The notes: generated from the letters alone by a model not told the origin. A stretch of DNA of 64,000 bases from an uncultured Gammaproteobacteria bacterium (GCA_964413645.1 CAYPSA010000003.1:19328-83327), one strand, 5' to 3'. Counted from the first letter of the stretch, positions 1,003 through 58,184 are shown. Translations and numbers: made by a program.

Positions 1003-1026
1003 TTAATTATATATTATACTAGACAC

Positions 1027-1569
1027 ATGAGACTGCTTATTGGTCTAGGAAATCCGGGGGAAAAATATGAGAAAACGCGACATAATGTAGGCGTTATGCT
1101 AGTGGAAAGGGCGGGGGAGATTCTCCTGCCTGCCGGCAGGCAGGTCGGTTCCGTTCAGAATGACAAGGGTAACGCTCAAAATGACAAGATTAATTGGAAA
1201 GCCGTGAAATTAAAATGTTTTATGAATGATTCTGGTATAGAAGTTCGACAAGTAATGAATTTTTATAAAGTTGAACCAAAAGATCTGATTATCGTTCACG
1301 ATGATTTAGATATAAAGCTCGGTGAATTCAAAATTCAACATGGAAAAGGTCCGTATGGGCATAATGGGATTCTTTCAATCGAGCGCGAATTGGGAACAAA
1401 AGAGTTTACTCGAGTTCGAATTGGTATTGAAAATCGAGATCCGGAAAATAAGGTTGCAGGAGTAGAATACACGCTTCAAAATTTCACGTCCGAAGAGTTA
1501 ATTATTATCGAGAAAACTTTTGATCAGATTTTTTCCCAACTGCCCCCAATTCTTTCAGTTTCCACATAA
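1027..1569 (+). CDS. pth: peptidyl-tRNA hydrolase
   Basis: The N-terminus MRLLIGLGNPGEKYEKTRHNVG is present, followed by FMNDSG, VHDDLD, HGKGPYGHNG and RIGI motifs in the canonical Pth order. The start is moved to the ATG at 1027. Residues about 33-55 are encoded by a dispersed repeat (see findings). Confidence 0.9.
   Translation: MRLLIGLGNPGEKYEKTRHNVGVMLVERAGEILLPAGRQVGSVQNDKGNAQNDKINWKAVKLKCFMNDSGIEVRQVMNFYKVEPKDLIIVHDDLDIKLGEFKIQHGKGPYGHNGILSIERELGTKEFTRVRIGIENRDPENKVAGVEYTLQNFTSEELIIIEKTFDQIFSQLPPILSVST
1125..1188. repeat. dispersed repeat copy (20-bp palindrome plus two CAGAATGACAAG-type modules) inside the pth coding sequence
   Basis: CCTGCCTGCCGGCAGGCAGG lies at 1125-1144, followed by ttcagaatgacaag and ctcaaaatgacaag. 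The same modules occur in intergenic copies at 3156, 13839, 19331 and 32990. Confidence 0.85.
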
Positions 1570-1789: not shown

Positions 1790-1810
1790 ACAGGTATTAT
1801 ACAGAGTTTA

Positions 1811-1912
1811 TCCGAGATTTCTCCTCACTGTCTTAAGACAGATCGTCGAAATGACAAACAAATATGTCATTTCGAGCGCCTGCCTGCTTGCAGGCAGGTA
1901 GCGAGAAATCTC
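1811..1912. repeat. dispersed repeat cluster (GAGATTTCTC / CGAAATGACA / GTCATTTCGAGC / variant palindrome / GCGAGAAATCTC)
   Basis: The cluster reads tccgagatttctcctcactgtc...gtcgaaatgaca...gtcatttcgagcgCCTGCCTGCttGCAGGCAGGtagcgagaaatctc. An almost identical left half is found at 12599-12644. Confidence 0.85.
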
Positions 1913-1995
1913 AGCTCACTCATATATCGAGATTTTAAGGTAAGAAATCTTGGATAGTTATTGACTCCCAGTAGCAGTTCATGTAATACTAATGT

Positions 1996-3144
1996 ATGCG
2001 CAAACATAGAAAAGGGCACATCAAGAAAAAGCCTGCACATAAGATGCTTGTTTACTCCCTTGTGCTCGTGCTATTTGCCGCTACGCTTTGGTATGGAAAT
2101 CATTCCAGAAGTGTTTTGGGTATTGCTACAGAAACCGGAATTGACACAGGTGGAGTGTTTATTCCTCCCGAGGAGCCGTTGCCAACTTCTCAAATAGGTC
2201 AGGTAACCATTGCTCCAACTATTCCTCTTCAGCCAACCAACGTGATAATTCCTACCGATGTATTGTTGCCTACAACTGCCCCAACCAGTCCCCCTGTTCC
2301 TACACCGGTTCTAGTAGTACCCGATGAGCCAGTATATGTTGAAATAATTGATGAACCAGGAGATGGATTGAAGACGGGGGGTGGATTGGTAGATATTGGA
2401 AAAGATCCGGTAACAGTTGTTATTGAAAACACACCATCGGGTGTGACGACTACAACAGAGAAATTAACTCCACAAACTAAATTAGTAGATTCATCTGCGG
2501 CAATAATTACTTCGCAAACAGGTGGAAATACGACCGTTTCGCAAAAAAATATTTCAACACTTGATCGACTGTTTTCATTTTTCACCGGGAATTCTGCTGA
2601 CCTAACTGATTCTGCAGCAAAAGGTTCTGTGCAAAAAAAATCAGCATATTCTCAGGTGTATATTTCAAGCGATGGTGGTACTACGTTTGTAACAGATCCG
2701 ACTCAAACTATTTCAGCGCTTGATGAATGGCTTGGATTTAATGGAATTAAGCTTGAATCACTGGGTGATGGATCATTTCGTATTACTCAGGGCGATGTGG
2801 TCGCGATCATGAGGCCAAAAGACAGTAAAATTGCAGTAAATTTGGCACGGATGGAATTATTAGTGAATACCTCGGTCGGATTTCAGCCACTTTCGTACTT
2901 GCCTAAACGAGTTACTGAATATTTGGCAGATTCGGGAATTATTTCACGGCTGAGTGCGCCTATTGAGGTTGTTGAAACACCCACGGAAATGCATTTACAC
3001 ATGAAAACCATTTCGACACAATATTTGGCTGCATTTATTCCAATATCAGTAAAAGTAGAGTATTGTATGTCAGCTACGACTCTTAATCCATGTGGTAAGA
3101 AACAAGGCTTCCTGTCAAGAGCACTGGATTACTTATCTTTATAA
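1996..3144 (+). CDS. hypothetical membrane-anchored protein with a Pro/Thr-rich linker
   Basis: It has a basic N-terminus followed by one TM helix (LVYSLVLVLFAATLWY), then a P/T/V-rich stretch and a non-repetitive C-terminal domain. No known motif was recognised. A possible promoter TTGACT-17nt-TAATAC lies at 1961-1989. Confidence 0.6.
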   Translation: MRKHRKGHIKKKPAHKMLVYSLVLVLFAATLWYGNHSRSVLGIATETGIDTGGVFIPPEEPLPTSQIGQVTIAPTIPLQPTNVIIPTDVLLPTTAPTSPPVPTPVLVVPDEPVYVEIIDEPGDGLKTGGGLVDIGKDPVTVVIENTPSGVTTTTEKLTPQTKLVDSSAAIITSQTGGNTTVSQKNISTLDRLFSFFTGNSADLTDSAAKGSVQKKSAYSQVYISSDGGTTFVTDPTQTISALDEWLGFNGIKLESLGDGSFRITQGDVVAIMRPKDSKIAVNLARMELLVNTSVGFQPLSYLPKRVTEYLADSGIISRLSAPIEVVETPTEMHLHMKTISTQYLAAFIPISVKVEYCMSATTLNPCGKKQGFLSRALDYLSL

Positions 3145-3146
3145 CA

Positions 3147-3238
3147 CCCAGATTCCCTGCCTGCCGGCAGGCAGGCTCACTGCGTTCAGAATGACAAGGG
3201 TGCTCGCTCAGAATGACAATGTAATTTAGAATGACAGG
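3147..3238. repeat. dispersed repeat cluster (palindrome plus three GAATGACA modules)
   Basis: The cluster reads cagattcCCTGCCTGCCGGCAGGCAGGctcactgcgttcagaatgacaagg...gctcagaatgacaatg...ttagaatgacagg. Confidence 0.85.
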
Positions 3239-3242
3239 AGCT

Positions 3243-7392: not shown

Positions 7393-7486
7393 ATGTCATT
7401 TGCACTACCTTTGTCATTCCGAACAGAGTGAGGAATCTCAGAATAATCATCAACACCTAGATTCTTCGCTGCGCTCAGAATGACAA
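7393..7486. repeat. dispersed repeat cluster
   Basis: The cluster reads gtcatttgcac...gtcattccgaacagagtgaggaatctcag...agattcttcgctgcgctcagaatgacaa. Confidence 0.8.
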
Positions 7487-11881: not shown

Positions 11882-12474
11882 TGTATAGTGTAAATTCCTC
11901 CGACTGTGCTACCAAGCGTATTTTCGCCATTGATCGCAGTAAGTGTTTTGGTATTGTCAAAATCAATGATGACTGATTTAGCGCCCGCTTTTGGCGTCAT
12001 GGTAAAGCTAAAAACCACACCTTCTTTTCGATCGGTGGGACTTTTTTCAGATAGGGAACCATTATATGTAATCTTTCCATTCTCATTTTTCATACCAATA
12101 ACTTGTGGGAATACCGTTCCATTAGTAAGTGCAGAGATGGTAACCCTTTTTGGATCATATGAAAGTACCACATCTGCTGCTGTTACTGGTAACTTTGAAA
12201 GCATAACTTCTACCGTTACCGCTTCTCCTGCTTTCACTGTTTGCTTTGCAGGTGAAAGAGCAATTGTGGTTGATGGTTTGATATTCTCGATAGCACTTGT
12301 TGTTGGAGTGGTTGTTGTAGGTTCAGAATCAGATTTCTTGGTTACGTTTGCTCCGACAATAATACTTATAATGAAGAGTCCGAAAATAATGGCAATAACG
12401 GCCATTTTTCGGTTTTGATCGAGCTTATTGAACTCGGAAAGGTCTTGTTTGATCGTGCTTGATAGATTTGTCAT
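11878..12474 (-). CDS. membrane-anchored cohesin-domain protein
   Basis: It has one N-terminal TM helix (MAVIAIIFGLFIISIIVGA) and a T/P linker. A single beta-sandwich-type module follows with cohesin-like signatures (VTVEVMLSKLPVTAADVVLSYDPKRVTISAL and GVVFSFTMTPKAGAKSVIIDF). It is the first gene of the operon with the two giants. Confidence 0.65.
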   Translation of the reverse strand: MTNLSSTIKQDLSEFNKLDQNRKMAVIAIIFGLFIISIIVGANVTKKSDSEPTTTTPTTSAIENIKPSTTIALSPAKQTVKAGEAVTVEVMLSKLPVTAADVVLSYDPKRVTISALTNGTVFPQVIGMKNENGKITYNGSLSEKSPTDRKEGVVFSFTMTPKAGAKSVIIDFDNTKTLTAINGENTLGSTVGGIYTIQ

Positions 12475-12556
12475 ATTTATTGATTGTAGATAAAGACTTC
12501 AATCGATGTCAAGTGGGAAAAATACTATATAAACGACGAGGAAGCTGGAATTATTT

Positions 12557-12644
12557 GTCATTTCGAAGAAGCGAAGCGACTAGGAAATATCAATCTATCC
12601 GAGATTTCTCCTCACTGTCAAATTGACGGCTCGTCGAAATGACA
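12557..12644. repeat. dispersed repeat cluster
   Basis: The cluster reads gtcatttcgaagaagcgaagcgactaggaaat...tccgagatttctcctcactgtcaaattgacggctcgtcgaaatgaca. The right half is near-identical to 1811-1856. Confidence 0.85.
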
Positions 12645-12737
12645 TACTATCTGAAATTAATCGTTTATCGGTAGGTAAGTCATCTTGGAGAGGGATTTTG
12701 TGCCTAATATGCGGTACCCCCGTATCGTATAAGTCAT

Positions 12738-13805: not shown

Positions 13806-13866
13806 GTCATTCTGATCCCGAGCGAAGTTAAGGGAGAACCTGCCTGCCGGCAGGCAGGGAATCTCC
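13806..13866. repeat. dispersed repeat copy (GTCATTCTGA...palindrome...GGAATCTCC)
   Basis: The copy reads gtcattctgatcccgagcgaagttaagggagaaCCTGCCTGCCGGCAGGCAGGgaatctcc. Confidence 0.85.
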
Positions 13867-13951
13867 GCCAACTATATTATTATTGACAATTATTCTTATT
13901 GCTGGTCTAATAGTATTGGTTATCACGCATTCAGGAGAGTTGAACCTACCT

Positions 13952-18113: not shown

Positions 18114-18470
18114 ATGAAGACATTTAGTATTGAAGAAATAATAAAAATTCTTTTTAGTAATAATACTGCAAAGCAAAATGAGCTGCTTACTGAATATGGC
18201 TCGGCAGACGAAATGCACAAGGCTGAGTTAACCCAAATAATGTCAGATCAATTTCTAACGTTATTCGATGAATTAGCTGTATTAAAATATGAAAAATTCA
18301 TGGATGAAGTGTCTAATGGTGCTAGACAGATAGAGTCAAATATGATGCAAGAAGCATACCGGGCAGTTCATGAAGATTTAGCCAAAGTTCTAACGGGCGA
18401 GCATTCTGATAACCAAGAAATCAAAGCACTTCAGCAGAAAATTCAGAGTTTATCAATTGCTTCTCAGTAA
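18114..18470 (+). CDS. hypothetical small helical protein (118 aa)
   Basis: It starts 3 nt after the stop of the preceding gene, so it is likely co-transcribed. No motif was recognised. Confidence 0.5.
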   Translation: MKTFSIEEIIKILFSNNTAKQNELLTEYGSADEMHKAELTQIMSDQFLTLFDELAVLKYEKFMDEVSNGARQIESNMMQEAYRAVHEDLAKVLTGEHSDNQEIKALQQKIQSLSIASQ

Positions 18471-18474
18471 GGGC

Positions 18475-18545
18475 GGGGATTTCTCGCCTTCGGCTCGAAA
18501 TGACACGGATAGCTCAGAATGACAAAGGTACTTTAGGATGACAGG
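18475..18545. repeat. dispersed repeat cluster
   Basis: The cluster reads ggggatttctcgccttcggctcgaaatgacacgg...gctcagaatgacaaagg...ttaggatgacagg. Confidence 0.85.
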
Positions 18546-30501: not shown

Positions 30502-33413
30502 AATCTCTTAGTTATTATACTAATTCCGATGACGGCAATAGCTGCAAAACCGACATACTCTAATAGTTGTGGCCAGAAAAATACCCGAACACTTCCATTT
30601 GAATTTGCTGGAACAACCCAGCCGTTCGCCCAGTTATTGATTTTTACATGGTTTTTAAGCTCTTGACCGTTTAAATATGCCTTCCAGCCACGATCATATG
30701 CCTGGTTATACACAATAGTTTTTGTATTCTTATCACTGCTCGCATGAGCGAAATACAGCGCTTTTAGTTGTTCAAGGGGCATATGGTATACCTGCAAGCT
30801 AATCAAGGCGTTCTCGCTATTTAAACCCACATGTGAGTTATTCAGGAAACCAAGGGTATAACCTCTGTCATAACGATTTCCTGAAGGTAATATGTAGTAT
30901 TGTGTATCTGAACTTAAACGATCTTCTATTACCGTGTTTCCGGTAGTAATATTTTGTGCGTAAAAGAACAATCGCTGGCCAGAAACATGCTCATTTTCCA
31001 CTTTAACAATGTATGCCTGATCGTGGGCTATGTCAGGAAGGGAATAAGTAATGCAGACTGTTAACTTGAGACATTGGACAGGCTTAGCACCAGTGGTATC
31101 AATGGTCACGTATGAATGTTTTTGAAATGAAATTGTCAGCGTTTGTTCCTGTATAGCGCCTTGCAGTAATGATGTATCAGTTGTCGAAAACAGAGAGTAC
31201 TTGTCGGTGTTAAACGGTAATTGCGTTGATAATGAAAATGTATTAGGATTTTCGGTAAGTTTCCACGTTGGTGGGTTTATGTTTTTTTGGCTAAACAGGT
31301 CTAAAAACGGGTAGTAATAGTCATAATTCTCCTTATTGGCAGAGAGAGGACTTCGGTAATCTCCTAGAGAGGCATACGCAGAATCATCGTTCGTAATCGC
31401 TCTGTCGGGTCCAATCACAGGTAAATTCTGTATACGCGTTACAAAGGGAGCGGCGTCTATTACTTTGTAGATCGAGATCGTGCCAAATGATTTTTCAAGT
31501 TGCACTAATTCATTTGAAGCTAAAAGTTCCTTGATTTTGCTTGTCAAAAATGCTTTCTGGTGGGTCGAGGAGGCAAGTACACTCTCATCAACCAATAGGT
31601 AGTGTATATTGTATTTTTTAAGAACAGCTGTTACTTTTGGGGCTTCTCCTAAAGCCAGAGCCTGCTTCATTTCCCACAAATAACTCTCGCTATGTGCACT
31701 CCATACATCAAACGTAGGCGACACAATGGGCTGCTCAATTCCATACCATAAAAAACCAGATCCGGAATATCCCCAGGAATAGTGATACCATCCCCAGAAT
31801 GAATCTTGGGGCAACAGGGCAATGCGACTTTCCTTTGGAACGGCTTGAAAATATTTCATAGTTTGGAAATAGTCGTTTGGAATTTTTACGCGCACATGAT
31901 CGGAAAACAGGTTTCCGGTGAAAACAGGGAAGGAGACGAAAATAAGGAGCATGGTAATAAGGTAAAAAGGAAGTCTTGTGTCATTTCGAACGAAGTGAGA
32001 AATCTCGGATAGTTGAGATGGCTGAGATTTCTCGCCTACGGCTCGAAATGACAAAGGATCGTCTCCAGAGAGGCGGCTTAGAATGACAGCGAGTCCATAC
32101 ATGAAAAAATAACTCGAAATGAGTGCCCAGGGAATAGCAAATTTTGTAAATGGCGCACGGAACATTTGGGCAATGAAGCTATTTCGGGAAATAAGCTCGT
32201 TCAACTGAGAAAATATAGGTGTATTTGAAAGCAGCGCGACGGCGCATAGAAGCCATATTCCTAAAAATGGCGCACGATACGCACTTTTGCGAGTTATTCC
32301 AAGCAAAATGATGGCGAAAATGCCCCATGTGGCGACTATGGTCACAGGGTTTTCCAAATGCTTGCTCCATGGTTCAAACAGGAGTTTTTGATCGGTTCCA
32401 TTTAAGTCGTAATAAAAGCTCTTAAACGTGGCAAATGAAGAAATATCTCCTCGAGCTTTGTTTTGTACTTGAACATCTTGCGTGGCAAGTTGATTGATTT
32501 TGGCATTAGCTACCGTTTGAGAACCACCATTTATTAGAAAGTACGCTTGGGGAAGAATCCAGAAAAGGTTGGCGATGATGATAATAGCAAACATTGCAAA
32601 GAGAGTGCGAAGGCGAGGAATACTCTCCGAGCTCCGGGGGCTCGTAAATAGGCGCCATGTTCCAATAACTCCTAACACGAGCATGTACACGACAAACAAC
32701 GTTTGTACATAAAAGCTCGGCGTTGCTAACAAGTTGATTAAAAATAAGAGAAAGTAGGGTGATTGGAAAAGGGAGAATTTTGTGTCATATCGACCGCCCT
32801 GTGGGCGAGGAGAAATCTCGGATAAAGTGCGTAAGAATATCCATATTAACCAGGGAAGGGAAGCAAAGAAAATTGAAAAAGGTTCAAATGGAAGGAAGAA
32901 AAGTTGAATGGTGGCAAAGTTAAGGAGGTAAAAAAGAGATCCTGTGAAGGCTAAAGGTTTGTCATTCTGAGGGAGAGAATCGACCCGAACCTGCCTGCCG
33001 GCAGGCAGGGAATCTGGGTGTGAAAACGTAACACCGAGATTCCTCGTTTCACTCGGAATGACAGCTGCGTCATGCTCGAGGAGCTTAAACATACCAAGCG
33101 CGCCCACGGCCAACATTCCAATATGAACAACATATCGAATTAGGCTCTGCGGAAGTATAAACGACAGTACCCATACGCCAATCGCTCTCAATAAGTCACT
33201 CGCGTGTGCCATGCCTCCAACCAGTCCAAAACTCTGATATTCTTGCCATACGGCAAAAACCGCTCGCTTCACTCCTAGTACAGGAGCAAGTTCTGTTTGT
33301 AAGTTATCCCATCCGGTCAAATACGTTCCAAAACGGTAATTTACTAGTCCAATAATGGCTACTACAAGGATAAGTAAAAATTGATACCAGTATATTTTTA
33401 GTAAGTTTTTCAT
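30498..33413 (-). CDS. large polytopic membrane protein (971 aa), possibly a GT-C-type glycosyltransferase
   Basis: About 12 or more TM helices occupy the N-terminal two-thirds, followed by a soluble C-terminal domain. It is translationally coupled to an upstream GT2 gene and to downstream def through ATGA overlaps. Three loop segments are encoded by dispersed repeat copies. The functional assignment is weak. Confidence 0.55.
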   Translation of the reverse strand: MKNLLKIYWYQFLLILVVAIIGLVNYRFGTYLTGWDNLQTELAPVLGVKRAVFAVWQEYQSFGLVGGMAHASDLLRAIGVWVLSFILPQSLIRYVVHIGMLAVGALGMFKLLEHDAAVIPSETRNLGVTFSHPDSLPAGRQVRVDSLPQNDKPLAFTGSLFYLLNFATIQLFFLPFEPFSIFFASLPWLIWIFLRTLSEISPRPQGGRYDTKFSLFQSPYFLLFLINLLATPSFYVQTLFVVYMLVLGVIGTWRLFTSPRSSESIPRLRTLFAMFAIIIIANLFWILPQAYFLINGGSQTVANAKINQLATQDVQVQNKARGDISSFATFKSFYYDLNGTDQKLLFEPWSKHLENPVTIVATWGIFAIILLGITRKSAYRAPFLGIWLLCAVALLSNTPIFSQLNELISRNSFIAQMFRAPFTKFAIPWALISSYFFMYGLAVILSRLSGDDPLSFRAVGEKSQPSQLSEISHFVRNDTRLPFYLITMLLIFVSFPVFTGNLFSDHVRVKIPNDYFQTMKYFQAVPKESRIALLPQDSFWGWYHYSWGYSGSGFLWYGIEQPIVSPTFDVWSAHSESYLWEMKQALALGEAPKVTAVLKKYNIHYLLVDESVLASSTHQKAFLTSKIKELLASNELVQLEKSFGTISIYKVIDAAPFVTRIQNLPVIGPDRAITNDDSAYASLGDYRSPLSANKENYDYYYPFLDLFSQKNINPPTWKLTENPNTFSLSTQLPFNTDKYSLFSTTDTSLLQGAIQEQTLTISFQKHSYVTIDTTGAKPVQCLKLTVCITYSLPDIAHDQAYIVKVENEHVSGQRLFFYAQNITTGNTVIEDRLSSDTQYYILPSGNRYDRGYTLGFLNNSHVGLNSENALISLQVYHMPLEQLKALYFAHASSDKNTKTIVYNQAYDRGWKAYLNGQELKNHVKINNWANGWVVPANSNGSVRVFFWPQLLEYVGFAAIAVIGISIITKRL
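31980..32088. repeat. dispersed repeat cluster inside the coding sequence
   Basis: The cluster reads gtcatttcgaacgaagtgagaaatctcgg...gagatttctcgcctacggctcgaaatgacaaagg...ttagaatgaca. It is translated as LSGDDPLSFRAVGEKSQPSQLSEISHFVRNDT. Confidence 0.85.
32784..32819. repeat. dispersed repeat copy inside the coding sequence
   Basis: The copy reads gtcatatcgaccgccctgtgggcgaggagaaatctc. It is translated as EISPRPQGGRYDT. Confidence 0.7.
32961..33063. repeat. dispersed repeat cluster with the perfect palindrome, inside the coding sequence
   Basis: The cluster reads gtcattctgagggagagaatcgacccgaaCCTGCCTGCCGGCAGGCAGGgaatctgggtg...gagattcctcgtttcactcggaatgaca. It is translated as VIPSETRNLGVTFSHPDSLPAGRQVRVDSLPQNDK. 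Confidence 0.9.
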
Positions 33414-34303
33414 AATTCAAATGCCAATCGTTCTTTTGCAGGAGCGCTATGGTATTTTGCTAGTGTAAAAAAAGGTGTAGAATGACGCATGTTTTTATAG
33501 AGCCATAAGATTGTTTTTTCGGGAAGAGTTAAGATTAATAATGACTGTAAAAAAGTACTGCAAATTCCTAAAACTGTTGGGCGATAGCCATAATAAGCTA
33601 CTGCTTTAATGCGACTCAAAAGCGTAAGGAGGAATGTTTGTTTGATATTTGCAAAAGATGTATTGTTGCTATGGGTTCGATACTTCAATAATACGTCGGG
33701 CATATTTTCCACTTTTCCGTAGCTAAATAATTTAAAGAATAGCTCAACTTCTTCAGCGGTGTTGAAGCCGTTTTCATATAGAATTACGTCTTTGGGAAGT
33801 CGTTTAAGTGCGATCATGAGGGTGGGTTGTTGAATTGGAATAAAGGTAAAAATATATGCTTGGATATCTTCGAATGAAAGAGGGAAGTTTTTCATACCAA
33901 CTCGTCGGCCCTTTTCGTCGATCATAATACATTGACCCCCAACAGCAACTGTTTCCTTGTTTTTGCGAAGGTATTTAAGCTGTTTTTCAAGTCGGTGAGA
34001 ATCGGCAATATCATCGCCGTCCATGCGGGCAACAAATTTTGTAGTTACATGAGAAAGTGCCTTGCGCATAGATTTAGAAACTCCCTGATTCGTTTGGTTG
34101 CGGTAAATGTGAATTCGTGGATCACGTTTAGCGTAACGGTTCATGATTCTCCAGGTAGTATCTGTTGAGGCATCGTCGACGATAATAAATTCGAATCTAT
34201 GATACGACTGACGAAGAATACTTTCAATTGCTTCTACGAGAAAGCCGCCTGCATTATATACAGGCATAACAACGGAAACGATTGGTTTTTGATTTTTTAT
34301 CAT
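33410..34303 (-). CDS. family 2 glycosyltransferase
   Basis: VSVVMPVYNAGGFLVEAIESILRQSYHRFEFIIVDDASTDTT is a GT2 signature, with the motif DGDD further downstream. The start is trimmed to the ATG at 34303, and the alternative at 34339 lies in the GC-rich flank. Confidence 0.85.
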   Translation of the reverse strand: MIKNQKPIVSVVMPVYNAGGFLVEAIESILRQSYHRFEFIIVDDASTDTTWRIMNRYAKRDPRIHIYRNQTNQGVSKSMRKALSHVTTKFVARMDGDDIADSHRLEKQLKYLRKNKETVAVGGQCIMIDEKGRRVGMKNFPLSFEDIQAYIFTFIPIQQPTLMIALKRLPKDVILYENGFNTAEEVELFFKLFSYGKVENMPDVLLKYRTHSNNTSFANIKQTFLLTLLSRIKAVAYYGYRPTVLGICSTFLQSLLILTLPEKTILWLYKNMRHSTPFFTLAKYHSAPAKERLAFEL

Positions 34304-34556
34304 GGCAGTGCCTCTGGACACAATCGAGATTATGTCCATAGGAACTGCCCGAAGTGGTGATGAGGATTGACGAGGTGTCAAACCAAACCATGATCCACTT
34401 CGGGCGGGGGTTCTCTGCAAAAGCAGCGGGCGTATGGCAAACGTGAGCCATAGCTTACTGCGAAAGCAGCGGGTTTACGAAGGTTACTCCTTTTGAACTA
34501 GATGTTCAGATAGATCCAGGTAGGATCTGTGCGTATCGGCGGCTTTGGGGCAGCGT

Positions 34557-36953
34557 TTAGAACGTGCAGGGCGGATAGTCCAGCCAGACTTCCTCGGAAA
34601 CTACCATATGGTCGCCTTGTCCATCCTTGCCCGTGTATCGGCAGCCGTTTGAATCACCAGTGGCAGAGCCATCGGTGAAGTTGACTGAATAGCAGATGAC
34701 AAAGTCACCGCTACTAAACGGACCGTCGATTCGGACAGGTTGCGGTTCAGGCGCAGGCGGCGGTGGAGCTTCCACAACGGGGTCGCCATTAGGCACGACC
34801 TCGTACTGGGTCTCCTGGGTTGGCGGAACTGTGGTGGCAACTACGATCAGTCGCCGCTGGGTGGCCTTCGGGATGATCCGAAGGTTCGGCTTGTTGGCCT
34901 TCGGGATGATCCGAAGGTTTGGTTTGTTTGTCCAAACGACCGGTGGGATGACGCGGCTTGCGTCGCAAACGGGCCGAAGCTCGTTGCAGTCCGGACAGAT
35001 TACTCCATCCAGAACTTTCCCGCCCAAAGGTGCCGATTTGAAGCTACAGTCGCCATAGACCACCCCACTGCTGAGTGTGATCCGGTAACCGACAACTTCG
35101 TCGCCTGCATTGAATGTCCTTGGTGGTAAACCTTTTCCCTTACCAGTTGCATCGCGAACACACATTGCTGTGGTCGAGCACCAGGGAAGGGTCGGGTTTC
35201 CTACACCGTTCCAACGTCGCAGGTTGGCCCGCAACGTTGTTTCATCGCAGTGATGGTTACGGATTTGAGTTTGCATTTCAGCCTCAATGAGACTTTCAAT
35301 CCACCCGTTACGATCGCAGTTGTCGATCTTATACAGAACGACTCGTGCTTCTCGAACGATAAACTCGAATTGTCCGTTTTCCAACACGTTGATTCTGCAG
35401 CTGGTGCTAAGACACTCGTTGCTACCAACTGGTGTTGTTTCCCAACCAACAAGGATGCCGACGTATCCTTGCGGAACGTCGATCTTCAAAGTCGCCTTGT
35501 CGCTTGGGATCCAGGTGCAGTCTTTCACCATGACGGGGGGCACTGACGGACATTCCGTCGGGCTTGCCGTTGGTGTCTTGGTCGGCGTGCGCGTCGGCGT
35601 GGGCGTCGGAGTTTCGGTCGGACACTCGGTCGACGTCGCGGTCGGCGTGGGCGTTTCGGTCGGACACTTCATGGGCCAAATACAAGGCCACCATGGCGTG
35701 TTGGTCGGGCTTGGCGACGGTCTCGGTGTTGGGCCAGGCGTTGGCGTGCACAAGCCTGGGAAGGCTTCGCACGGGTCGCCAATTGGCGGTTTCGGTGTAG
35801 TCGTCGGTGTTTCCGGACACTCGCCATTCGGTCCCGGGTAGGGACAGCTTGGCTTGTCCGTTGCCTTCGGCGTGTTCGTCGGTGGATTCACCGGCGTGTT
35901 CGTCGGCGTCCGGGTGGACGTCGAGGTCGTGGTGGCTGTGGCCGTGGCGGTCGCGGTCGCAGTCGCAGTCGGGCTGGCCGTGCTGGTGGCCGTGGCGGTC
36001 GCCGTGGGCGTGGCGGTGGCCGTGGGCGCAGTGGCGCTTGGACCGGGGGTCGGGCTCGACGTAATCGTCGGACTGGCCGTCACAGTCGGGCTGGGCGTCG
36101 CCGTGGCGGTTGCGGTAGCCGTAGCCGTGGCGGTTGCCGTGGCAGTCGCCGTCGAGGTCGCGGTCCGTGTGGCTGTCGCCGTGGCGGTGCCGTTGGGCGT
36201 TGCCGTGATGACAGTCGGGCCGGTCTGTGGGGTCGCGGTGACCTGAACCACTATCTCATACCGCTTGAAAAGCTGGTAATCGTCGTGGATCTCGTCCCCT
36301 GGGAAGTAGTAGAATCCGCCACCCAAGTTGTAACCCTTCTTACCGGGAAGGGGTGCGGGAAGCCGCGGCACGTCGTGCATTTGGGTGCAGTACAGGTTGA
36401 TAACGACTGTGCGTCCGTCTTCCGTCACCCGGAGGGTGTCGGGGTTAGCGGCATTCAGGCCGGTGGTCTGCGACCGAACGGTCACAGTTGGCTCGGTCCG
36501 CGCAAAGAGTTCGGGATGTGCCTTCAAATAGGCGGCTGCCAGCTCCGAGAACCGGGTCTCAGTGATGGGCTGGGTCGCCGCCAGGCGAAGCTCTGCGAGC
36601 TCTTCGTCCTGCGCTGCGTCCTTCGCGTTGGCCGTGGCCATCGCGTCCGCAAGCTTGTCGCTGCGGGTGTTGTCAACTGCGCGTTGGGTGGCCTGGGCGT
36701 CGGCGTTGTCGGTCAGCAGCTGGTCGATGCCATCGAGAGCGGCTAGTGCCTCCTCGCTGTTGGCGAGAGATGTCTCACTATTCTTGATAGCCACCTGACT
36801 GTTGTCGATCGCTCGCTGTTCAGCGGCAGTCGGGGTCGGCTCACTCTCGGCGCTTGCCGTGTCCGCATCGTCGCGGCCAAGAAAGTAGAAAATGGCAAGC
36901 CCGACTGAAACGGCGACAGTCGCTACGATAGCGACCAGCGTCCTGGTGGACAT
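34557..36953 (-). CDS. GC-rich membrane-anchored/secreted protein with a long (Thr-Ala)n/Thr-Pro linker and a Cys-rich C-terminal region
   Basis: The start is chosen at the second ATG because AAGGAG lies 5 nt upstream (atgAAGGAGaaccccATG). It has an N-terminal TM helix (LVAIVATVAVSVGLAIFYFL). About 130 aa of TATATATPT-type low complexity follow, then a C-terminal region with many Cys. Composition is very different from the neighbours. Confidence 0.75.
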   Translation of the reverse strand: MSTRTLVAIVATVAVSVGLAIFYFLGRDDADTASAESEPTPTAAEQRAIDNSQVAIKNSETSLANSEEALAALDGIDQLLTDNADAQATQRAVDNTRSDKLADAMATANAKDAAQDEELAELRLAATQPITETRFSELAAAYLKAHPELFARTEPTVTVRSQTTGLNAANPDTLRVTEDGRTVVINLYCTQMHDVPRLPAPLPGKKGYNLGGGFYYFPGDEIHDDYQLFKRYEIVVQVTATPQTGPTVITATPNGTATATATRTATSTATATATATATATATATATPSPTVTASPTITSSPTPGPSATAPTATATPTATATATSTASPTATATATATATATTTSTSTRTPTNTPVNPPTNTPKATDKPSCPYPGPNGECPETPTTTPKPPIGDPCEAFPGLCTPTPGPTPRPSPSPTNTPWWPCIWPMKCPTETPTPTATSTECPTETPTPTPTRTPTKTPTASPTECPSVPPVMVKDCTWIPSDKATLKIDVPQGYVGILVGWETTPVGSNECLSTSCRINVLENGQFEFIVREARVVLYKIDNCDRNGWIESLIEAEMQTQIRNHHCDETTLRANLRRWNGVGNPTLPWCSTTAMCVRDATGKGKGLPPRTFNAGDEVVGYRITLSSGVVYGDCSFKSAPLGGKVLDGVICPDCNELRPVCDASRVIPPVVWTNKPNLRIIPKANKPNLRIIPKATQRRLIVVATTVPPTQETQYEVVPNGDPVVEAPPPPAPEPQPVRIDGPFSSGDFVICYSVNFTDGSATGDSNGCRYTGKDGQGDHMVVSEEVWLDYPPCTF
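34863..34928. repeat. 33-nt tandem duplication inside the GC-rich gene
   Basis: ggccttcgggatgatccgaaggttcggcttgtt is followed directly by ggccttcgggatgatccgaaggtttggtttgtt, with 2 substitutions. It encodes KPNLRIIPKAN twice. Each unit contains the hairpin CTTCGG-gatgat-CCGAAG. Confidence 0.9.
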
Positions 36954-37571
36954 GGGGTTCTCCTTCATTATTGGGCAGTGCTATAAAAGCAACTGCAACG
37001 GGCGGGGGGGTCTTGTACAGTCCTGTTCGAGCGACTGATTGTTTCCGAAGAAAATAATACTGTCTGCAGTATGATATCGTCAGGTCGACGAGTACCGGTG
37101 CAAACGTTTAACTGAGTTTTAAACTCAGGTTGTTTTCCTGCAGTGCGAAAAATTGAACTGTCCGTCTTCCGATATTTTCCGACTCACTCCTTTCTTGTTT
37201 TTGAAAATGGGGAACCTCAGAACTTAGGATGTATATTTCATAAATCCTCAGATTCCCCATCTTCACTCTTAATATAGTTAATTTAGTAACCTTTTCCACA
37301 AAAGGAGATCCTTAGGCTTGCGCTGTTAGGATACAGATTTTTGTGGAAGTAAACCCAATTGTAAAAGTGCTTATTTGGAAACTATGAGTGGAAAATAAAT
37401 CTCCACCATCTTTCCCAAAAAATCCAACATTTTACCTGACTTGGGCCGGATGCAAAACCCGGCTTTTCGGGTAGAAAATGTAACCTATAGTTTATCAAAA
37501 AAAGGTGTAATTGTCAAGTTGGGACGCATTTACTTGTACTCATTATTATTTTGTATGCTAAAATACTTTTT

Positions 37572-38771
37572 ATGTTTACTCCGTCACAAAAAATGCTTTC
37601 AAACTACGCGCATGTGTTAACCGATTTTGCTTTGGGAAGTGGGGAGGGAATTAAGAAAGGTGAAGTTATTTTTGTACAATTCGATTCTCCAGCTCTTCCT
37701 TTGGCTCAAGAGGTATACCGCGCAATTCTTCAAAAGGGTGCGCATCCGATGGTAAAAATGAACGAAGATAGTTTTGGTAAGATTTTTTATGATGAAGCAA
37801 GTGATGAGCAGCTTGAATTTTTTCCTAAGAAATACCAAAAATCGCTCATTGAAACCATGGATCACCGCATGTATTTAATGGCCGATCGTGACCCATTGCA
37901 CCTAAAAGGGGTTGATCCGGTCAAAATGATGAAGGCTAATAAGAGTCGAAAAACGCTTAAAAAGTGGCTTGATCAAAAAGAAGATGCTGGAAAACTAACG
38001 TGGACATTGTGTTTATACGGTACGCCAGGAATGGCAAAACAAGCAGGCTTGAGTTTAGAAAAGTATTGGGAGCAGATTGCTGCAGCATGCTTTCTAGAAG
38101 AAAAGAAGCCTATAGCTAAATGGCAAGAGGTGTTCAAAAAAGTTGAACAGACCATGGCTAAATTGAATGCATTACCAATCGATAAGCTCCATGTTGTGGC
38201 TAATAAGACTGATTTATGGATTAGCATGGGAGAAAAGCGAAAATTCATTGGGGGGAGTGGTCGAAATATTCCGAGCTTTGAAATATTTACGTCGCCCGAT
38301 TGGCGAGGTACGAATGGCCATGTATACTTCGACTTCCCATTGTATCGATACGGCAACATTATTGAGGATATTAGCCTTGAATTCAAAAATGGACATGTAG
38401 TAAACGCATCGGCTCGTAAAAATGAAAAGTTGATTAAGGAACTTATTAAGCAGAAAAATGCCGACAAAATAGGTGAATATTCGCTGACCGACCGACGATT
38501 TAGCAAAATCACTAAATTCATGGCTAATACGCTATTTGATGAAAATTATGGAGGGGAATTTGGAAATACTCATTTAGCCTTGGGTTCTTCGTATCATGAT
38601 ACCTATACCGGAAATGCTAAAAAGCTAAAAGATGCCGATTGGACAAAATTAGGATACAACTCGAGTGCCGAACATACCGATATTATCGCCAAACAAGACA
38701 GAGTTGTAACTGCAGTGCTTAAAGACGGATCAGAAAAAGTGATCTATAAAGGTGGGGAATTTAAGGTTTAA
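37572..38771 (+). CDS. aminopeptidase, M29 (AmpS/PepS/aminopeptidase T) family
   Basis: The N-terminus is LSNYAHVLTDFALGSGEGIKKGEVIFVQFDSPALPLAQEVYRAILQKGAHP. C-terminal motifs are GNTHLALGSSY and SAEHTDII. The start is taken at the ATG at 37572, because the ORF track start is a TTG. Confidence 0.75.
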   Translation: MFTPSQKMLSNYAHVLTDFALGSGEGIKKGEVIFVQFDSPALPLAQEVYRAILQKGAHPMVKMNEDSFGKIFYDEASDEQLEFFPKKYQKSLIETMDHRMYLMADRDPLHLKGVDPVKMMKANKSRKTLKKWLDQKEDAGKLTWTLCLYGTPGMAKQAGLSLEKYWEQIAAACFLEEKKPIAKWQEVFKKVEQTMAKLNALPIDKLHVVANKTDLWISMGEKRKFIGGSGRNIPSFEIFTSPDWRGTNGHVYFDFPLYRYGNIIEDISLEFKNGHVVNASARKNEKLIKELIKQKNADKIGEYSLTDRRFSKITKFMANTLFDENYGGEFGNTHLALGSSYHDTYTGNAKKLKDADWTKLGYNSSAEHTDIIAKQDRVVTAVLKDGSEKVIYKGGEFKV

Positions 38772-40924
38772 GACTTTCTTCCATACTTCTCCTTACTCGT
38801 GGTAATAATCTTTTCTCGATTATCATTTTTTAGGTGGGGTAAGGGAAGCGTGAACGCGGGGAATGGCTGGGAAGTCATATTATCGACCGATAACTTCATA
38901 ACAATTTCAAACTTTCCTAAGGAAACCAAATCGGCTTCCGTGTATAGTTCCCCGAATTCCTTAGACAAGAAATAGGCGTCGCGTGCGCCTAACACAAACG
39001 ACATGAGTGTGCCTACATTTCCAAAAATGGCGCGTTGAATTTCAAGTTCCAGCTGTTCGGTATATTGATTAGCCAGGGTAAGTGATAATCGGTATTTTCG
39101 TGCCTCAGATAGGATCTTAATGAATGAATTCGTGGCAAAATTTTGAAACTCATCAACGTACAAGAAAAAATCTCGTCGATTTTCTTCTTTACTAAACGAT
39201 CGTCCCATCGCCGCAAGCTGGATTTGAGTAATAATCATGGCTCCAAGTAGAGATGCATTGTCTTCTCCGAGCTTTCCTTGCGACAGATTTAAGATGAGGA
39301 TTTTTCCTTCATCCATAATTTCAGCTAAATTAATTGATGACTTTGGAGATCCGATAATATTACGAATCATGGTAGAGGTTACGAATTGACCAACTTTATT
39401 TTGAATAGGGGAAACGGCTTCGGCACGCAACTTATCGCCCATTTTGGCAAATTCGGCATTCCAGAAGTTTTTGAGCACCGGATCGTTAATTTGAGGCACA
39501 ACTTTTGCCCGATATTCGTCGTCGGAAAGGATTCGAAGCGCGTCAACCAGCGTTGCATTTGGAATTTCCAACAGTGTCAAAATAACGTTTCGCAAAATAT
39601 ACTCGAGTCGTGGTCCCCAGCTTTTTCCGTATAACTTGGAAAAAATAGAGACAATTCCTGAAGCAACTAAGTGTTTTTGTTCGGGGTGGTGCACTTCCAA
39701 AACGTTCAGTTTAAATGGTCTTTCACTGTCAAATGGTTCTAAATATACCACGTCGTTTATACGACGCTTAGGAATATAATCCAAGATAATTTCAGAAAGA
39801 TCTCCGTGCGGGTCGATAATGCCAATTCCGCGGTCGCGACGAATGTCGTCGATTGCCATATTAGCGATAAGCGTAGATTTTCCTGCTCCTGTTTTTCCGA
39901 TAATATACATGTGCTTGCGGCGATCAGCGGTTTTTATACCAAAAATCTGATCCTTATTCTTAAATTCTGTTTTTGCAAAGAAATTAATGTCTTTCTTCTG
40001 TTCTTCGTCCATTTCTTCAGAAATTGGCAAGTCGTCAGGCGGTTCCCCCGAAAGTGCCTTACCCCAAGCAATATTTTTAACACCTTTGAGTAGAATTCCC
40101 GGTGGGTGCCATAAACTTGCAAGTTCTTGGGCATTTAGAATTTGATCTTGGCGTTCGAGCATGTACGTGGTTCGTTTAACCATACGGTCAAGTAACTGTT
40201 TTTTGAGCATTTTGCGTTTTTTAAAGCCAAATTGATTTCCGTCGCCTAGTGAAAACGTTCCAAATGTGCCTGCTAAATTGCTTAAGTAGCTCATGGCGCC
40301 CTCGTCGGTTGTATCGGCAGTAAGGAGTCGGATTAAGGCTTTGCCGCCTGAAAAAGCAGTTTTTCGAGAAATAATCATTTTTTGTGGGTTCATACCGTAT
40401 TTATCGGCACCTTTGTCGTAGCTCATTTTTTGAGCAAATGAAGCTGCGGCCTTTCCCCAGGCAAACGAAGCAGGCGTAATAAGGATCTGAATAGCAGCTT
40501 TTTGTTGAGGAGTTGAGCGTGCTAGAAAGCCTAAAATAGAAGAGAGAGGGTCGACATCTTTAAAATCGTAATACGTTTTAATGGGAAGGTAAAAAGACGA
40601 TGAAAGGGCAACTTCACCAAGAGCCGTATATGGGGAACTGGTTAGGTATGAAAGGGGGTCTTTGGTTTTGACGATTTTTGAGTTGGTAAACGATGAAGTA
40701 ATAAGGCTTTTTACGAACGTTTCACTTTTTTCACTTGTGGTGGCATACATATAAATGGTTTGACCGAGTAAATAGATTTCAAACGCATAATATTTTGGTT
40801 GAATATATAAGCGTTTAAGAGGGGGTAGGTACGAAGGAAGTAGAGAGGCGAAAATCTGACTTGCCGCTTCAATAGGCGTTTCGTCGTCTTTTGGATTGCG
40901 AACCTGTAAATGAACAAGGGACAT
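38768..40924 (-). CDS. P-loop ATPase of the VirD4/TraG/TraD (FtsK-HerA superfamily) type
   Basis: Walker A is MYIIGKTGAGKST and Walker B is FFLYVDEFQNF. A ~330-aa N-terminal domain of unknown function precedes the ATPase, and no TM helix is evident. Confidence 0.7.
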   Translation of the reverse strand: MSLVHLQVRNPKDDETPIEAASQIFASLLPSYLPPLKRLYIQPKYYAFEIYLLGQTIYMYATTSEKSETFVKSLITSSFTNSKIVKTKDPLSYLTSSPYTALGEVALSSSFYLPIKTYYDFKDVDPLSSILGFLARSTPQQKAAIQILITPASFAWGKAAASFAQKMSYDKGADKYGMNPQKMIISRKTAFSGGKALIRLLTADTTDEGAMSYLSNLAGTFGTFSLGDGNQFGFKKRKMLKKQLLDRMVKRTTYMLERQDQILNAQELASLWHPPGILLKGVKNIAWGKALSGEPPDDLPISEEMDEEQKKDINFFAKTEFKNKDQIFGIKTADRRKHMYIIGKTGAGKSTLIANMAIDDIRRDRGIGIIDPHGDLSEIILDYIPKRRINDVVYLEPFDSERPFKLNVLEVHHPEQKHLVASGIVSIFSKLYGKSWGPRLEYILRNVILTLLEIPNATLVDALRILSDDEYRAKVVPQINDPVLKNFWNAEFAKMGDKLRAEAVSPIQNKVGQFVTSTMIRNIIGSPKSSINLAEIMDEGKILILNLSQGKLGEDNASLLGAMIITQIQLAAMGRSFSKEENRRDFFLYVDEFQNFATNSFIKILSEARKYRLSLTLANQYTEQLELEIQRAIFGNVGTLMSFVLGARDAYFLSKEFGELYTEADLVSLGKFEIVMKLSVDNMTSQPFPAFTLPLPHLKNDNREKIITTSKEKYGRKS

Positions 40925-43799: not shown

Positions 43800-43970
43800 G
43801 TGAAACAGTGCCTCGTATACCTGGTCTTAAGCGTTTTGTTGGGAAGCCTCCTGTTGTTTGGACAGACCTGTCCAACAATGATTGAGAGACTCATCGGGGG
43901 CTTCTTCCTGGGTATGTCCGGCGTATACACTGCGTTCTTCGCAGTCCTGCGAAAGCTGCAGAGTCCTTAA
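43800..43970 (+). CDS. small membrane protein (56 aa, 2 TM)
   Basis: ORF 43590..43970 is trimmed to the GTG at 43800, which follows gtccAAGGAGGACacc. The sequence is VKQCLVYLVLSVLLGSLLLFGQTCPTMIERLIGGFFLGMSGVYTAFFAVLRKLQSP. Confidence 0.55.
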   Translation: MKQCLVYLVLSVLLGSLLLFGQTCPTMIERLIGGFFLGMSGVYTAFFAVLRKLQSP

Positions 43971-44118
43971 GGGATTCGGCGACTAGGCTTGGGGGGGGCG
44001 GGTGACCGTTTCGTAGTTGCACAGCTTTGTGCATACGGTCATTCGCCCCTTCGCGTTCTTTTTTCCAAAAACCAATAACAAACAGTTTCTACCCTCATAA
44101 TTTCTTCTGAGAATATTT

Positions 44119-44167
44119 GAGATCTCTCACTGCGTTCGAGATGACATGGGCAGTGGTTCAGAATGAC
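44119..44167. repeat. dispersed repeat copy
   Basis: The copy reads gagatctctcactgcgttcgagatgacatgggcagtggttcagaatgac. Confidence 0.7.
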
Positions 44168-44272
44168 CCTTCGACACTCTGTTCACTCAGGGCTAAGAGT
44201 AAGAATGTGCTTTTCCAACAATCTAAATATTCATTTATGGGACTTCTAGTCCGTTGACGTAGAAATATTCTG

Positions 44273-58132: not shown

Positions 58133-58140
58133 TTTAGATC

Positions 58141-58184
58141 GTCCACCTTCCAGGTTATCTACGCACTGTCCACCTTCCAGGTGG
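58141..58184 (+). terminator. two copies of GTCCACCTTCCAGGT; the second forms the hairpin CCACC-TTCCA-GGTGG
   Basis: Copies lie at 58141-58156 and 58167-58184, directly after the stop at 58132, followed by a T-rich tract. The same motif occurs in reverse orientation at 52675-52690. Confidence 0.45.

Follow-up and report, generated by a model that had tools for sequence, protein, structure and literature searches.

In-frame copies of a TGTC-tagged hairpin repeat in three loops of a predicted AftD-like membrane glycosyltransferase from a Candidate Phyla Radiation host

To our knowledge, most documented cases of translated palindromic repeats come from Rickettsia and some Proteobacteria. Here we describe three copies of a palindromic repeat kept in frame within one gene of a 64-kb stretch of DNA (CAYPSA010000003.1:19328-83327 of assembly GCA_964413645.1, 64,000 nucleotides, hereafter called the window). 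The gene product is a 971-aa membrane protein, a predicted AftD-like glycosyltransferase of the GT-C fold, and the host belongs to the Candidate Phyla Radiation (CPR)/Microgenomates. By analogy, the three segments appear to be of the same kind as the Rickettsia palindromic elements (RPEs), i.e., RPE-like coding insertions, and they resemble the CGTC/TGTC-tagged class of repetitive extragenic palindromes (REPs). This class was defined by Di Nocera, De Gregorio and Rocco in 2013 (PMC3733652). In that article, the tag is given as CGTC, often TGTC, followed by an 8-9-bp stem starting with the pairs A-T and T-A, a loop of 4-5 nt and an unpaired tail that is mostly CCA. The repeats form head-to-head dimers, are mostly extragenic and near gene 3' ends, with occasional intragenic copies, and are presented there as having no known dedicated transposase. 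According to the same authors, the class includes Neisseria dRS3 as well as RPE-4 (CGTC-4) and RPE-6 (CGTC-1), intragenic copies are most numerous in R. conorii, and the dimers encode 20-30 aa. RPE-1 is attributed to Ogata et al. 2000 in a later summary (PMC10969869).

The second system of relevance is that of the Neisseria sequence NTS (CGTCATTCCCGCGMAVGCGGGAATCYRG), which is bound and cut, as single-stranded DNA (ssDNA) only, by the 94-aa GIY-YIG nuclease SsnA (PMC11893778, Nat Commun 2025). For cleavage, the three bases upstream of the NTS palindrome are important, and for binding, the C that follows the palindrome; the loop is not required, can be extended, and its identity is unimportant. 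In the same study, Y6, Y17 and E64 of SsnA were mutated in the binding and cleavage assays, SsnA was reported to cut NTS-bearing ssDNA and to lower recombination near such repeats, and the ssn genes were described as flanked by related motifs in an arrangement like that of an insertion sequence (IS). Intragenic translated copies and Patescibacteria are not mentioned in that article. What is new in the locus described here is the CPR host lineage, the repeated occupation of one set of three loops throughout a protein family and the tie to the Ssn-type GIY-YIG system.

The initial annotation of the window had proposed that three repeat copies lie inside the open reading frame (ORF) of the membrane protein without interrupting it and that, together with a copy in pth (peptidyl-tRNA hydrolase), they make four stop-free coding insertions, and both statements hold. 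The ORF (Table 1) is intact despite the three insertions, the peptides AAVIPSETRNLGVTFSHPDSLPAGRQVRVDSLPQNDKPLAF, LSEISPRPQGGRYDTKF and RLSGDDPLSFRAVGEKSQPSQLSEISHFVRNDTRLPF are all found in its translation, and their DNA belongs to a family dispersed in the window; in pth, the insert EILLPAGRQVGSVQNDKGNAQNDK is likewise open and is spanned by the Pfam match of the enzyme. Insertion A, in loop 1, carries the apical palindrome CCTGCCTGCCGGCAGGCAGG in one of its two units, encodes AVIPSETRNLGVTFSHPDSLPAGRQVRVDSLPQND and, folded as ssDNA (32959-33065), reaches -28.7 kcal/mol (z = -6.1). Insertion B, in loop 2, is the partly decayed unit GTCATATCGA-CCGCCCTGTGGGCG-AGGAGAAATCTCGGATA, encoding LSEISPRPQGGRYD, and its ssDNA fold is weak (32782-32826, -6.1 kcal/mol, z = -1.2). 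Insertion C, in loop 3, encodes AVILSRLSGDDPLSFRAVGEKSQPSQLSEISHFVRND, and its doublet folds at -21.1 kcal/mol (31978-32055, z = -7.2). Tryptic peptides spanning the inserts would include NLGVTFSHPDSLPAGR, AVGEKSQPSQLSEISHFVR and one containing PQGGR. As with the RPEs, these are short palindromic repeats of a small-genome bacterium, in frame in unrelated housekeeping genes and compatible with the fold of the product, often as dimers encoding 20-30 aa and sometimes two or more per gene. The repeat is palindromic and dispersed, it sits in an otherwise conserved gene with neither stop nor frameshift, and insert-free orthologs exist. The likeness concerns these features, and there are differences: the host is a member of the CPR/Microgenomates, the units have a tandem G.A mismatch, a GNA tip and frequent nested palindromes, and members of one protein family, as distant as 36% identity, have been colonised time and again at the same three loops.

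The host protein was modelled with AlphaFold2 from an alignment of 102 homologs, with a mean predicted local distance difference test score (pLDDT) of 90.1 and a predicted template-modelling score of 0.92. The predicted architecture comprises ~12 transmembrane (TM) helices and a large beta-rich C-terminal domain. Since a PDB sequence search with the family profile gave no match, a fold search was needed, and in Foldseek the arabinofuranosyltransferase AftD of mycobacteria, a GT-C enzyme, ranked first (6W98, E = 4e-16), ahead of AglB, PglB and AftA. The protein is thus confidently modelled as an AftD-like glycosyltransferase with a GT-C fold. A Pfam scan of the 971-aa protein gave no family at E <= 0.1, the threshold of GT-C_AftD (PF11847) not being reached; this family is weakly matched by 5 of 22 relatives (best 8.8e-7). 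G34, W35 and D36, in the first and presumably external loop, are invariant in the 102 family sequences, which would provide a conserved acidic residue as in GT-C enzymes. Of the 677 homologs found with the host protein, most belong to CPR/Microgenomates, and those bearing names are Roizmanbacteria, Microgenomates or Patescibacteria. The gene order glycosyltransferase (GT) - GT-C - def - M50 protease - L28 is preserved in seven ortholog loci, with the GT upstream in all. The ORF is intact in 8/8 orthologs from eight independent assemblies with conserved synteny, and third codon positions are 60% identical versus 79% overall between the window gene and an ortholog, which indicates purifying selection on the host gene; together with the confident model, this rules out the pseudogene that the initial annotation had named as an alternative.

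The presumed placement of the inserts in loops between hydrophobic helices is confirmed by the model. The three inserts coincide with its sole low-pLDDT stretches (44-50 at residues 121-150, ~60 at 201-220 and 53-62 at 451-480), and each lies between two long DSSP helices (89-118 and 149-163; 177-199 and 219 onward; 421-448 and 480-493). All three come directly after a predicted TM helix, and the first codons of insertion C lengthen the preceding one. Across the 102 family members, loops 1, 2 and 3 vary between 4 and 49, 8 and 60, and 2 and 37 aa, respectively, with lysine plus arginine (K+R) densities of 0.16, 0.23 and 0.22 and net charges of +1.3, +2.5 and +2.6. By comparison, the presumed cytoplasmic segments of the family have K+R densities of 0.18-0.40, and the presumed external loops, which are of fixed length, 0-0.10. 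The three loops are therefore probably cytoplasmic. For loop 3, the model supports this by helix parity with the C-terminal domain, taken as extracytoplasmic like that of other GT-C enzymes; loops 1 and 2 are probably cytoplasmic on charge bias only, since two counts are possible for helices 70-118 and 219-257.

For the comparison of the loops, a codon alignment of eight orthologs (the window gene and P0002 to P0008) was used. In P0008 (54% identity), whose 8.6-kb locus is almost free of repeats, the three loops measure 27, 33 and 75 nt and contain no repeat, the site of insertion A included. In the other seven orthologs, the loops are 57-159 nt long and made of different units of the same repeat family, the content at the site of insertion A differing among them. 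Inserts of at least 8 aa are found at loops 1, 2 and 3 in 8, 11 and 21 of 120 homologs, ~80-90% of which have no large inserts, and several of the inserts are recognisably repeat-derived. Because P0008 and most of the 120 homologs have no such segments, and because the unit occurs in many unrelated phyla (see below), the alignments indicate that the three segments are insertions into the gene and not the source of the intergenic repeats, an origin that the initial annotation had considered as an alternative. Other units of the class also occupy these loops in distant homologs (36-40% identity), as confirmed at the DNA level in P0103 (GTCATCCTGA..CCTGCCGGCAGG..AGGATCTC), P0105 (GTCATTCCCGCGAAAGCGGGAATCT) and P0013 (several units), and the three loops appear to be insertion hot-spots that were colonised repeatedly.

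The states of the loops are out of step with relatedness. The window gene is closest overall to P0003, with which it has loop 2 in common; its loop 3 and the left half of its loop 1 are common with P0002. The loop 1 of P0002 is chimeric, combining the left unit of the window gene with the right unit of P0003, and the junction lies in the spacer. The site of insertion B is occupied in the window gene, P0003, P0007 and P0006 (different content) and empty in P0002, P0004, P0005 and P0008. In P0004, loop 1 equals that of P0005 except for the hairpin tip, where AGC has given way to a 27-nt palindrome (net +24 nt), apparently a nested event exactly at the tip. Between the window gene and P0002, the loop-3 element is 94% identical (third positions 95%) against 79% (60%) for the rest of the gene, and between P0003 and P0005 the values are 96% (97%) against 80% (62%), with p ~1e-6 in both cases. 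In the former pair, little of the identity peak lies outside the element. When P0003 is compared with P0005 and P0007, high identity extends ~270 nt into both flanks of loop 3, which points to a recent homologous exchange of the segment.

The repeat unit has a length of ~27 nt and the form TGTC-ATTCY-GA-RC-GNA-GY-GA-RGAAT-CTC, i.e., a 5-bp stem, a tandem G.A/A.G mismatch, a 2-bp stem and a GNA triloop (e.g., GTCATTCTGAGCGAAGCGAAGAATCTC). The core, GCGAAGC, is the textbook example of a highly stable mini-hairpin of DNA. Other palindromes, e.g., CCTGCCTGCCGGCAGGCAGG or CCGCCCTGTGGGCGAGG, can occupy the variable tip, and two inverted units with a 10-35-nt spacer form a palindrome of 75-105 nt with the ends TGTCATTC...GAATGACA. 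A genome collection with one genome per species was scanned for GTCATTCYGARCGNAGYGARGAATCT, which gave at least 120 loci (L008-L127) and at least 143 matches, versus ~0.02 expected by chance in the whole collection by our estimate; the counts that follow refer to the 143 units among the matches listed. Their hosts include Nitrospirota, Ignavibacteria, Chloroflexota, Acidobacteriota, Planctomycetota and Bacteroidota (including isolates of Pedobacter and Mucilaginibacter) as well as Saccharibacteria, Burkholderiales, Clostridia, Treponema, Fibrobacter and one metagenome-assembled genome of Nanoarchaeota. The pairs left free by the pattern covary: Y8-R20 is T-A in 96 units and C-G in 46, with one mismatch, and R11-Y17 is G-C in 106, A-T in 32, G.T in three and A.C in two, the loop base being unconstrained. 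As G.T is no commoner than A.C, a structure formed only in RNA is not favoured. The stems of the orthologs covary as well (ATTCC/GGAAT, ATTTC/GAAAT, ATTCT/AGAAT, ATCCT/AGGAT and ACCCT/AGGGT), and inverted doublets with exactly complementary arms are common across other phyla (e.g., L025, L055, L057, L072, L077 and L086). Only 19 of the 143 units lie in long open spans, versus 73% of random positions, and 124 are outside. In an all-against-all BLAST of 3165 ORFs from the 120 unit-bearing loci listed, no family was found in more than eight loci, and those found were generic. Searches of plasmid and phage collections gave arm-length matches in four cyanobacterial plasmids and one phage contig, none of them annotated. 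Literature searches gave nothing relevant on the unit sequence or on the peptides HSERSEES, SFRAKRGI and VIPSEARNL, nor anything on palindromic or miniature inverted-repeat transposable element (MITE) repeats in CPR/Patescibacteria.

With the CGTC/TGTC-tagged REPs, the units share the unpaired tag (TGTC or GGTC in the window; T precedes GTC in 117 of the 143 units, i.e., 82%, and C in 14), the first stem pairs A-T and T-A, the head-to-head dimers, a distribution that is mostly extragenic and near gene 3' ends with occasional copies inside genes, and the lack of a known dedicated transposase. In contrast, their tail is CTC instead of CCA (CT followed by C in 77/143). The stem ATTCY-GA-RC has nine positions including two G.A mismatches, and the loop may be counted as GNA (3 nt) or as CGNAG (5 nt). 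REP doublets forming hairpins (REPINs) and MITEs such as Correia, ERIC, BOX and Nezha are likewise inverted doublets in many copies, mostly intergenic, non-coding and presumably mobilised in trans, with occasional in-frame gene fusions. Unlike the REPINs served by REP-associated tyrosine transposases (RAYTs), the tag here is TGTC and not GTAG, no Y1 transposase was found in the part of the window ORFs scanned, and there is no conserved neighbour gene among the 120 loci listed. Moreover, no RAYT and no IS with matching ends was found, the associated gene family being a GIY-YIG nuclease and not a Y1 transposase. As in a MITE, terminal inverted repeats are present; the candidate parent would be a hairpin-flanked GIY-YIG element and not an established IS. 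Coding palindromes of Nematomorpha mitochondria, as described in PMC6649704, are also long inverted repeats inside protein genes with both arms translated, but they belong to a eukaryotic organelle and are not part of a dispersed repeat family common to intergenic DNA.

Within the window, the pattern GTCATTYCGARCGAAG (the 5' half of the unit, up to three mismatches) has 11 matches versus 1.9 expected, a number reached in none of 100 shuffles, and the palindrome CCTGCCTGCCGGCAGGCAGG has seven versus 0 expected. In-gene and intergenic copies have stretches of 27-40 nt in common at 89-100%. By profile search and inspection, ~13 repeat loci were identified, nine of them intergenic and four coding. 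Rfam, run on the whole window at gathering thresholds, returned three tRNAs only, and an E-value scan of 31900-33150 gave chance-level matches only; the unit thus appears to be covered by no RNA family described in Rfam. To account for the stop-free coding copies, the initial annotation had offered either a bias of the element toward ORF-compatibility or the purging of disruptive insertions, and had suggested a six-frame translation. The first alternative was rejected, since 30 of the 78 frames of the 13 loci are open, compared with 32.2 +/- 3.7 in random window segments and 28.8 +/- 3.6 in shuffles, and insertion C is open in only one of six frames, the one in use. The orthologs use all three forward frames of the unit (VIP/VIL.., SFR.. 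and HSE/HPE..), and units in reverse orientation are read mostly as QND/RND and once as RMT. Purging, however, stands: four of 13 loci are coding in a window that is 87% coding (P = 5e-6). It is this depletion, together with the lack of an excess of open frames, that attributes the stop-free survivors to selection. A single gene, with 5% of the coding DNA, holds three of the four coding copies (P = 6e-4, post hoc), which fits the existence of a few permissive sites.

The association of the units with GIY-YIG genes was tested directly, since the published pattern for Ssn-related motifs fails on the units of the window (see below). In a worked example (L079), a 95-aa GIY-YIG gene is flanked by inverted units. 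The family of this protein has 7976 matches, mostly of 94-97 aa, and its invariant Y6, Y18 and E65 are at almost the same positions as the SsnA residues named above. In 80 metagenomic loci (L131-L210), a correctly oriented unit of the window's type was present within 150 nt upstream of the GIY-YIG gene in 48/73 cases, downstream in 50/73 and on both sides in 34/66, compared with 1-2 of 80 in shuffled controls. A generic detector ('GTC + 5-bp stem') was used only in this orientation- and distance-restricted test; on the whole window it proved unspecific (32 matches versus 24 expected) and was discarded there. Given that inverted units flank GIY-YIG genes, the repeats of the window look like hairpin ends of GIY-YIG-plus-hairpin elements or their gene-less derivatives. 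The likeness to Neisseria dRS3/NTS extends to GTC just upstream of an ATTCC..GGAAT palindrome, a C after it, and inverted copies flanking a ~94-aa single-domain GIY-YIG gene. In addition, the P0105 unit contains the dRS3 palindrome, resembles the NTS core and is matched by the published pattern. The flanking of the nuclease gene is a result on the unit type in general, obtained in metagenomic loci. A subfamily with the G.A mismatch that flanks GIY-YIG genes appears to have been missed by the published pattern.

In our judgement, the three segments are probably in-frame survivors of a selfish hairpin repeat of the REP/REPIN/MITE type, lodged in permissive GT-C loops and subject to ongoing turnover. 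Repeat copies would land, or spread by recombination, across the genome, and gene-breaking ones would be removed by selection. The coding survivors would be those whose length is divisible by three, which lack a stop in the frame of the host gene and which sit at a site tolerant of extra residues. In the AftD-like protein, such sites would be the three short, length-variable loops between TM helices, where the repeats would be translated as disordered peptide and presumably be neutral. The gene-less doublets of this genome would be non-autonomous derivatives of small, unit-ended elements carrying a GIY-YIG gene. Turnover would proceed by unit replacement, nested insertion at hairpin tips and homologous exchange between lineages, and because of it related species would differ at exactly the three loops.

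Several observations weigh against this explanation. The shared elements exceed the host gene in nucleotide identity, third positions included (94-96% versus 79-80%), and a purely neutral passenger from a common ancestor would have diverged more; recent exchange, gene conversion from other copies or a constraint on the DNA hairpin are all possible reasons, one of which would be required. No target-site duplication and no clean empty/filled pair could be defined in the ortholog alignment, the 'empty' alleles of loop 2 differing in their flanks, so that transposition is presumed. No GIY-YIG gene was found by regular-expression search and hmmsearch in the window or in ~75 kb of 10 related CPR loci, nor any transposase in the window ORFs scanned (a part of them), and the GIY-YIG nuclease is therefore only a candidate partner enzyme in this CPR lineage. 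The published Ssn-related-motif pattern, HGTCWYN(0-2)YYVSBRHN(0-5)WNVSBRGN(0-2)RNCYNB, was applied to six canonical units from the window and its orthologs and fits none, the tandem G.A mismatch of these units being the cause. Finally, it is the maintained frame that suggests translation of the inserts as disordered peptide.

It is possible, though in our view unlikely, that the inserts are kept for a function of the hairpin at the DNA or mRNA level, as Ssn-type cleavage sites, recombination breakpoints or ribosome-pausing structures after a TM helix. The palindromes of the in-gene doublets are close to perfect (z = -6 to -7) and no worse than those of the intergenic copies, and every insert comes immediately after a TM helix; but P0008 and most homologs work without any insert, the decayed insertion B does not fold, and the same elements are mostly extragenic. 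The unrelaxed third positions of the shared elements and the high-identity tracts around the loop-3 element (P0003 versus P0005 and P0007) would agree with such a function, yet the tracts run into the flanks and recent recombination alone suffices to account for them. Likewise, the breakpoint of the chimeric element falls in the central spacer and SsnA lowers recombination near the repeats that it cuts (PMC11893778), whereas no Ssn gene was found in the window and the related CPR loci searched, and the content, orientation and number of units vary among close relatives. A more specific proposal is that the in-gene hairpins serve as Ssn-type nuclease sites, the three loops acting as breakpoints at which DNA, incoming or under replication, would be cut and re-joined, so that the gene would be shuffled in modules among related CPR lineages. 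CPR bacteria are thought to depend heavily on DNA uptake. We hold this proposal to be as doubtful as the general one; if true, a selfish repeat would be a general, previously unrecognised source of protein-length and allele mosaicism in CPR.

Less probable still is an adaptive loop diversification, in which the peptides would be selected for a role in the protein, such as surface variation against phages or hosts or the tuning of activity or partners. The initial annotation had suggested a repeat-driven diversification of loops, and as a description this is accurate, since the differences among the orthologs fall precisely on these three loops, the same ones that are affected in distant homologs. 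The gene also encodes a cell-envelope enzyme. Nothing, however, points to an adaptive role. The loops are K/R-rich and net positive, like the cytoplasmic segments of the family and unlike its external loops, with helix parity placing loop 3 in the cytoplasm; being variable in length and probably cytoplasmic, they argue for tolerance over adaptive surface variation. In addition, disorder is predicted for the peptides, it is the nucleotide and not the amino-acid sequence that is conserved, different frames of the same unit are in use (VIPSE / SFRA / HSERSE; QND / RMT), and the same repeat is abundant in non-coding DNA. That the repeats derive from the host gene, or that we are dealing with a decaying pseudogene or an artefact of the assembly, is very hard to credit, as the coincidence of three of four coding copies in one gene is all that speaks for it, against a unit present in many phyla, homologs without the segments, intact ORFs in syntenic and independent assemblies, relaxed third positions and a confident AlphaFold model.

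If the three segments are indeed survivors of a selfish hairpin repeat, the known phenomenon of translated palindromic repeats extends to the CPR. The repeats are also linked to the Ssn/GIY-YIG hairpin system, which was characterised recently; their class was previously without a known mobilising enzyme. For metagenome-assembled genomes, the practical consequence is that the units inflate and fragment gene calls, and a repeat origin should be recognised in peptides such as VIPSEARNL, SFRAKRGI, HSERSEES, PACRQAG and QNDK. Without experiment, the three inserts moreover point out insertion-tolerant loop positions of this GT-C fold.

Table 1. Coordinates of the host gene, the coding and intergenic repeat copies and a neighbouring gene in the 64-kb window
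Feature	Coordinates	Strand	Basis
Host gene, predicted AftD-like GT-C membrane glycosyltransferase, 971 aa	30498..33413	-	ORF, AlphaFold2 model, Foldseek
Insertion A, loop 1, residues ~117-151, inverted doublet of two hairpin units	32961..33063		Sequence, fold, pLDDT, orthologs
Insertion B, loop 2, residues ~197-210, single partly decayed unit	32784..32825		Sequence, fold, pLDDT, orthologs
Insertion C, loop 3, residues ~442-478, inverted doublet 31980-32053 plus third unit 32054-32088	31980..32088		Sequence, fold, pLDDT, identity, frames
pth (peptidyl-tRNA hydrolase) ORF	973-1569	+	Pfam Pept_tRNA_hydro 6e-45
Fourth coding copy, units in frame in pth, peptide EILLPAGRQVGSVQNDKGNAQNDK	1098..1190		Pfam Pept_tRNA_hydro 6e-45 spans insert
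Intergenic copies, two units back to back, one with CCTGCCTGC..GCAGGCAGG apex	1804..1916		Repeat and profile search
Intergenic unit cluster between convergent genes; 40 nt (3139-3178) 93% complementary to insertion A	3139..3240		Repeat search
Intergenic canonical inverted doublet, TGTCATTCCGAACAGAGTGAGGAATCTC - spacer - AGATTCTTCGCTGCGCTCAGAATGACA	7412..7486		Profile search E = 1e-7 and 3e-8, folding
Intergenic doublet between divergent genes	12556..12645		Profile search, folding z = -3.2
Intergenic unit with CCTGCCTGCCGGCAGGCAGG apex; 29 nt (13836-13864) 100% identical to part of insertion A	13806..13870		Repeat search
Intergenic units right after gene end; 34 nt (18472-18505) 91% identical to part of insertion C	18470..18530		Repeat and profile search
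Intergenic units between convergent genes	44110..44170		Profile search
GT2 glycosyltransferase, directly upstream of host gene	33410..34420	-	Pfam Glycos_transf_2 8e-36

Among the neighbours of the host gene, the GT2 glycosyltransferase would likely make the lipid-linked sugar donor and is outside the repeat phenomenon. The ribosomal protein L28 gene (28917-29237, -) encodes 106 aa in the window and 84-110 aa across ortholog loci (L001-L006), a spread that start-codon calls or extensions derived from the repeat may explain. A TrwB/TraG-like type IV coupling protein (38768-40924, -) adjoins an M29 aminopeptidase, and similar coupling-protein genes adjoin the GT-C gene in two distant homolog loci (L129 and L130). 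On the opposite strand, a tRNA gene (919-1002, -) overlaps the longest pth ORF, and the true start of pth is probably the ATG at 1027 (MRLLIGLGNPG...). The one weak match of a tblastn search for GIY-YIG genes in the window and the 10 CPR loci, at 43848-44117 (-; 29% over 90 aa, E = 0.037), was rejected, being broken by stops, absent on a rerun and without support from hidden Markov models; the stretch lies directly downstream of a hairpin unit and adjoins the repeat at 44110-44170, and could be a dead Ssn-like gene or pure chance.

Elsewhere in the window, proteins of 1369 and 1464 aa (3243-7352 and 7487-11881, both -), the former with a dockerin domain at its end, adjoin a cohesin-domain protein (11878-12474, -), which suggests a cellulosome-like surface assembly in a CPR bacterium; the canonical repeat doublet lies exactly between the two large genes. 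An island of 55% G+C at 34000-38000, in a window of ~41% G+C, contains an 803-aa ORF (34557-36968, -) with no Pfam match, made largely of 12- and 18-nt tandem periodicities (GTGGCGGTCGCC-like). It could be horizontally acquired, encode a low-complexity repeat protein or be a mis-binned segment. At 34856-34921, it holds two tandem copies, 91% identical, of the 33-nt GCTGGGTGGCCTTCGGGATGATCCGAAGGTTCG, each with a small CCTTCGG...CCGAAGG hairpin. Finally, the region 58130-59440 (~1.3 kb) has no convincing ORF. A ~46-nt direct repeat, AAAATAGGCATAAAAG...GTTATAACGCTCTAAA, occurs there four times (58585, 58662, 58790 and 58867; spacing 77/128/77 nt), accompanied by further TAGGCATAAA motifs (58358 and 59420) and by the palindrome CCTGTCTGCCGACAGGCAGG (59397).

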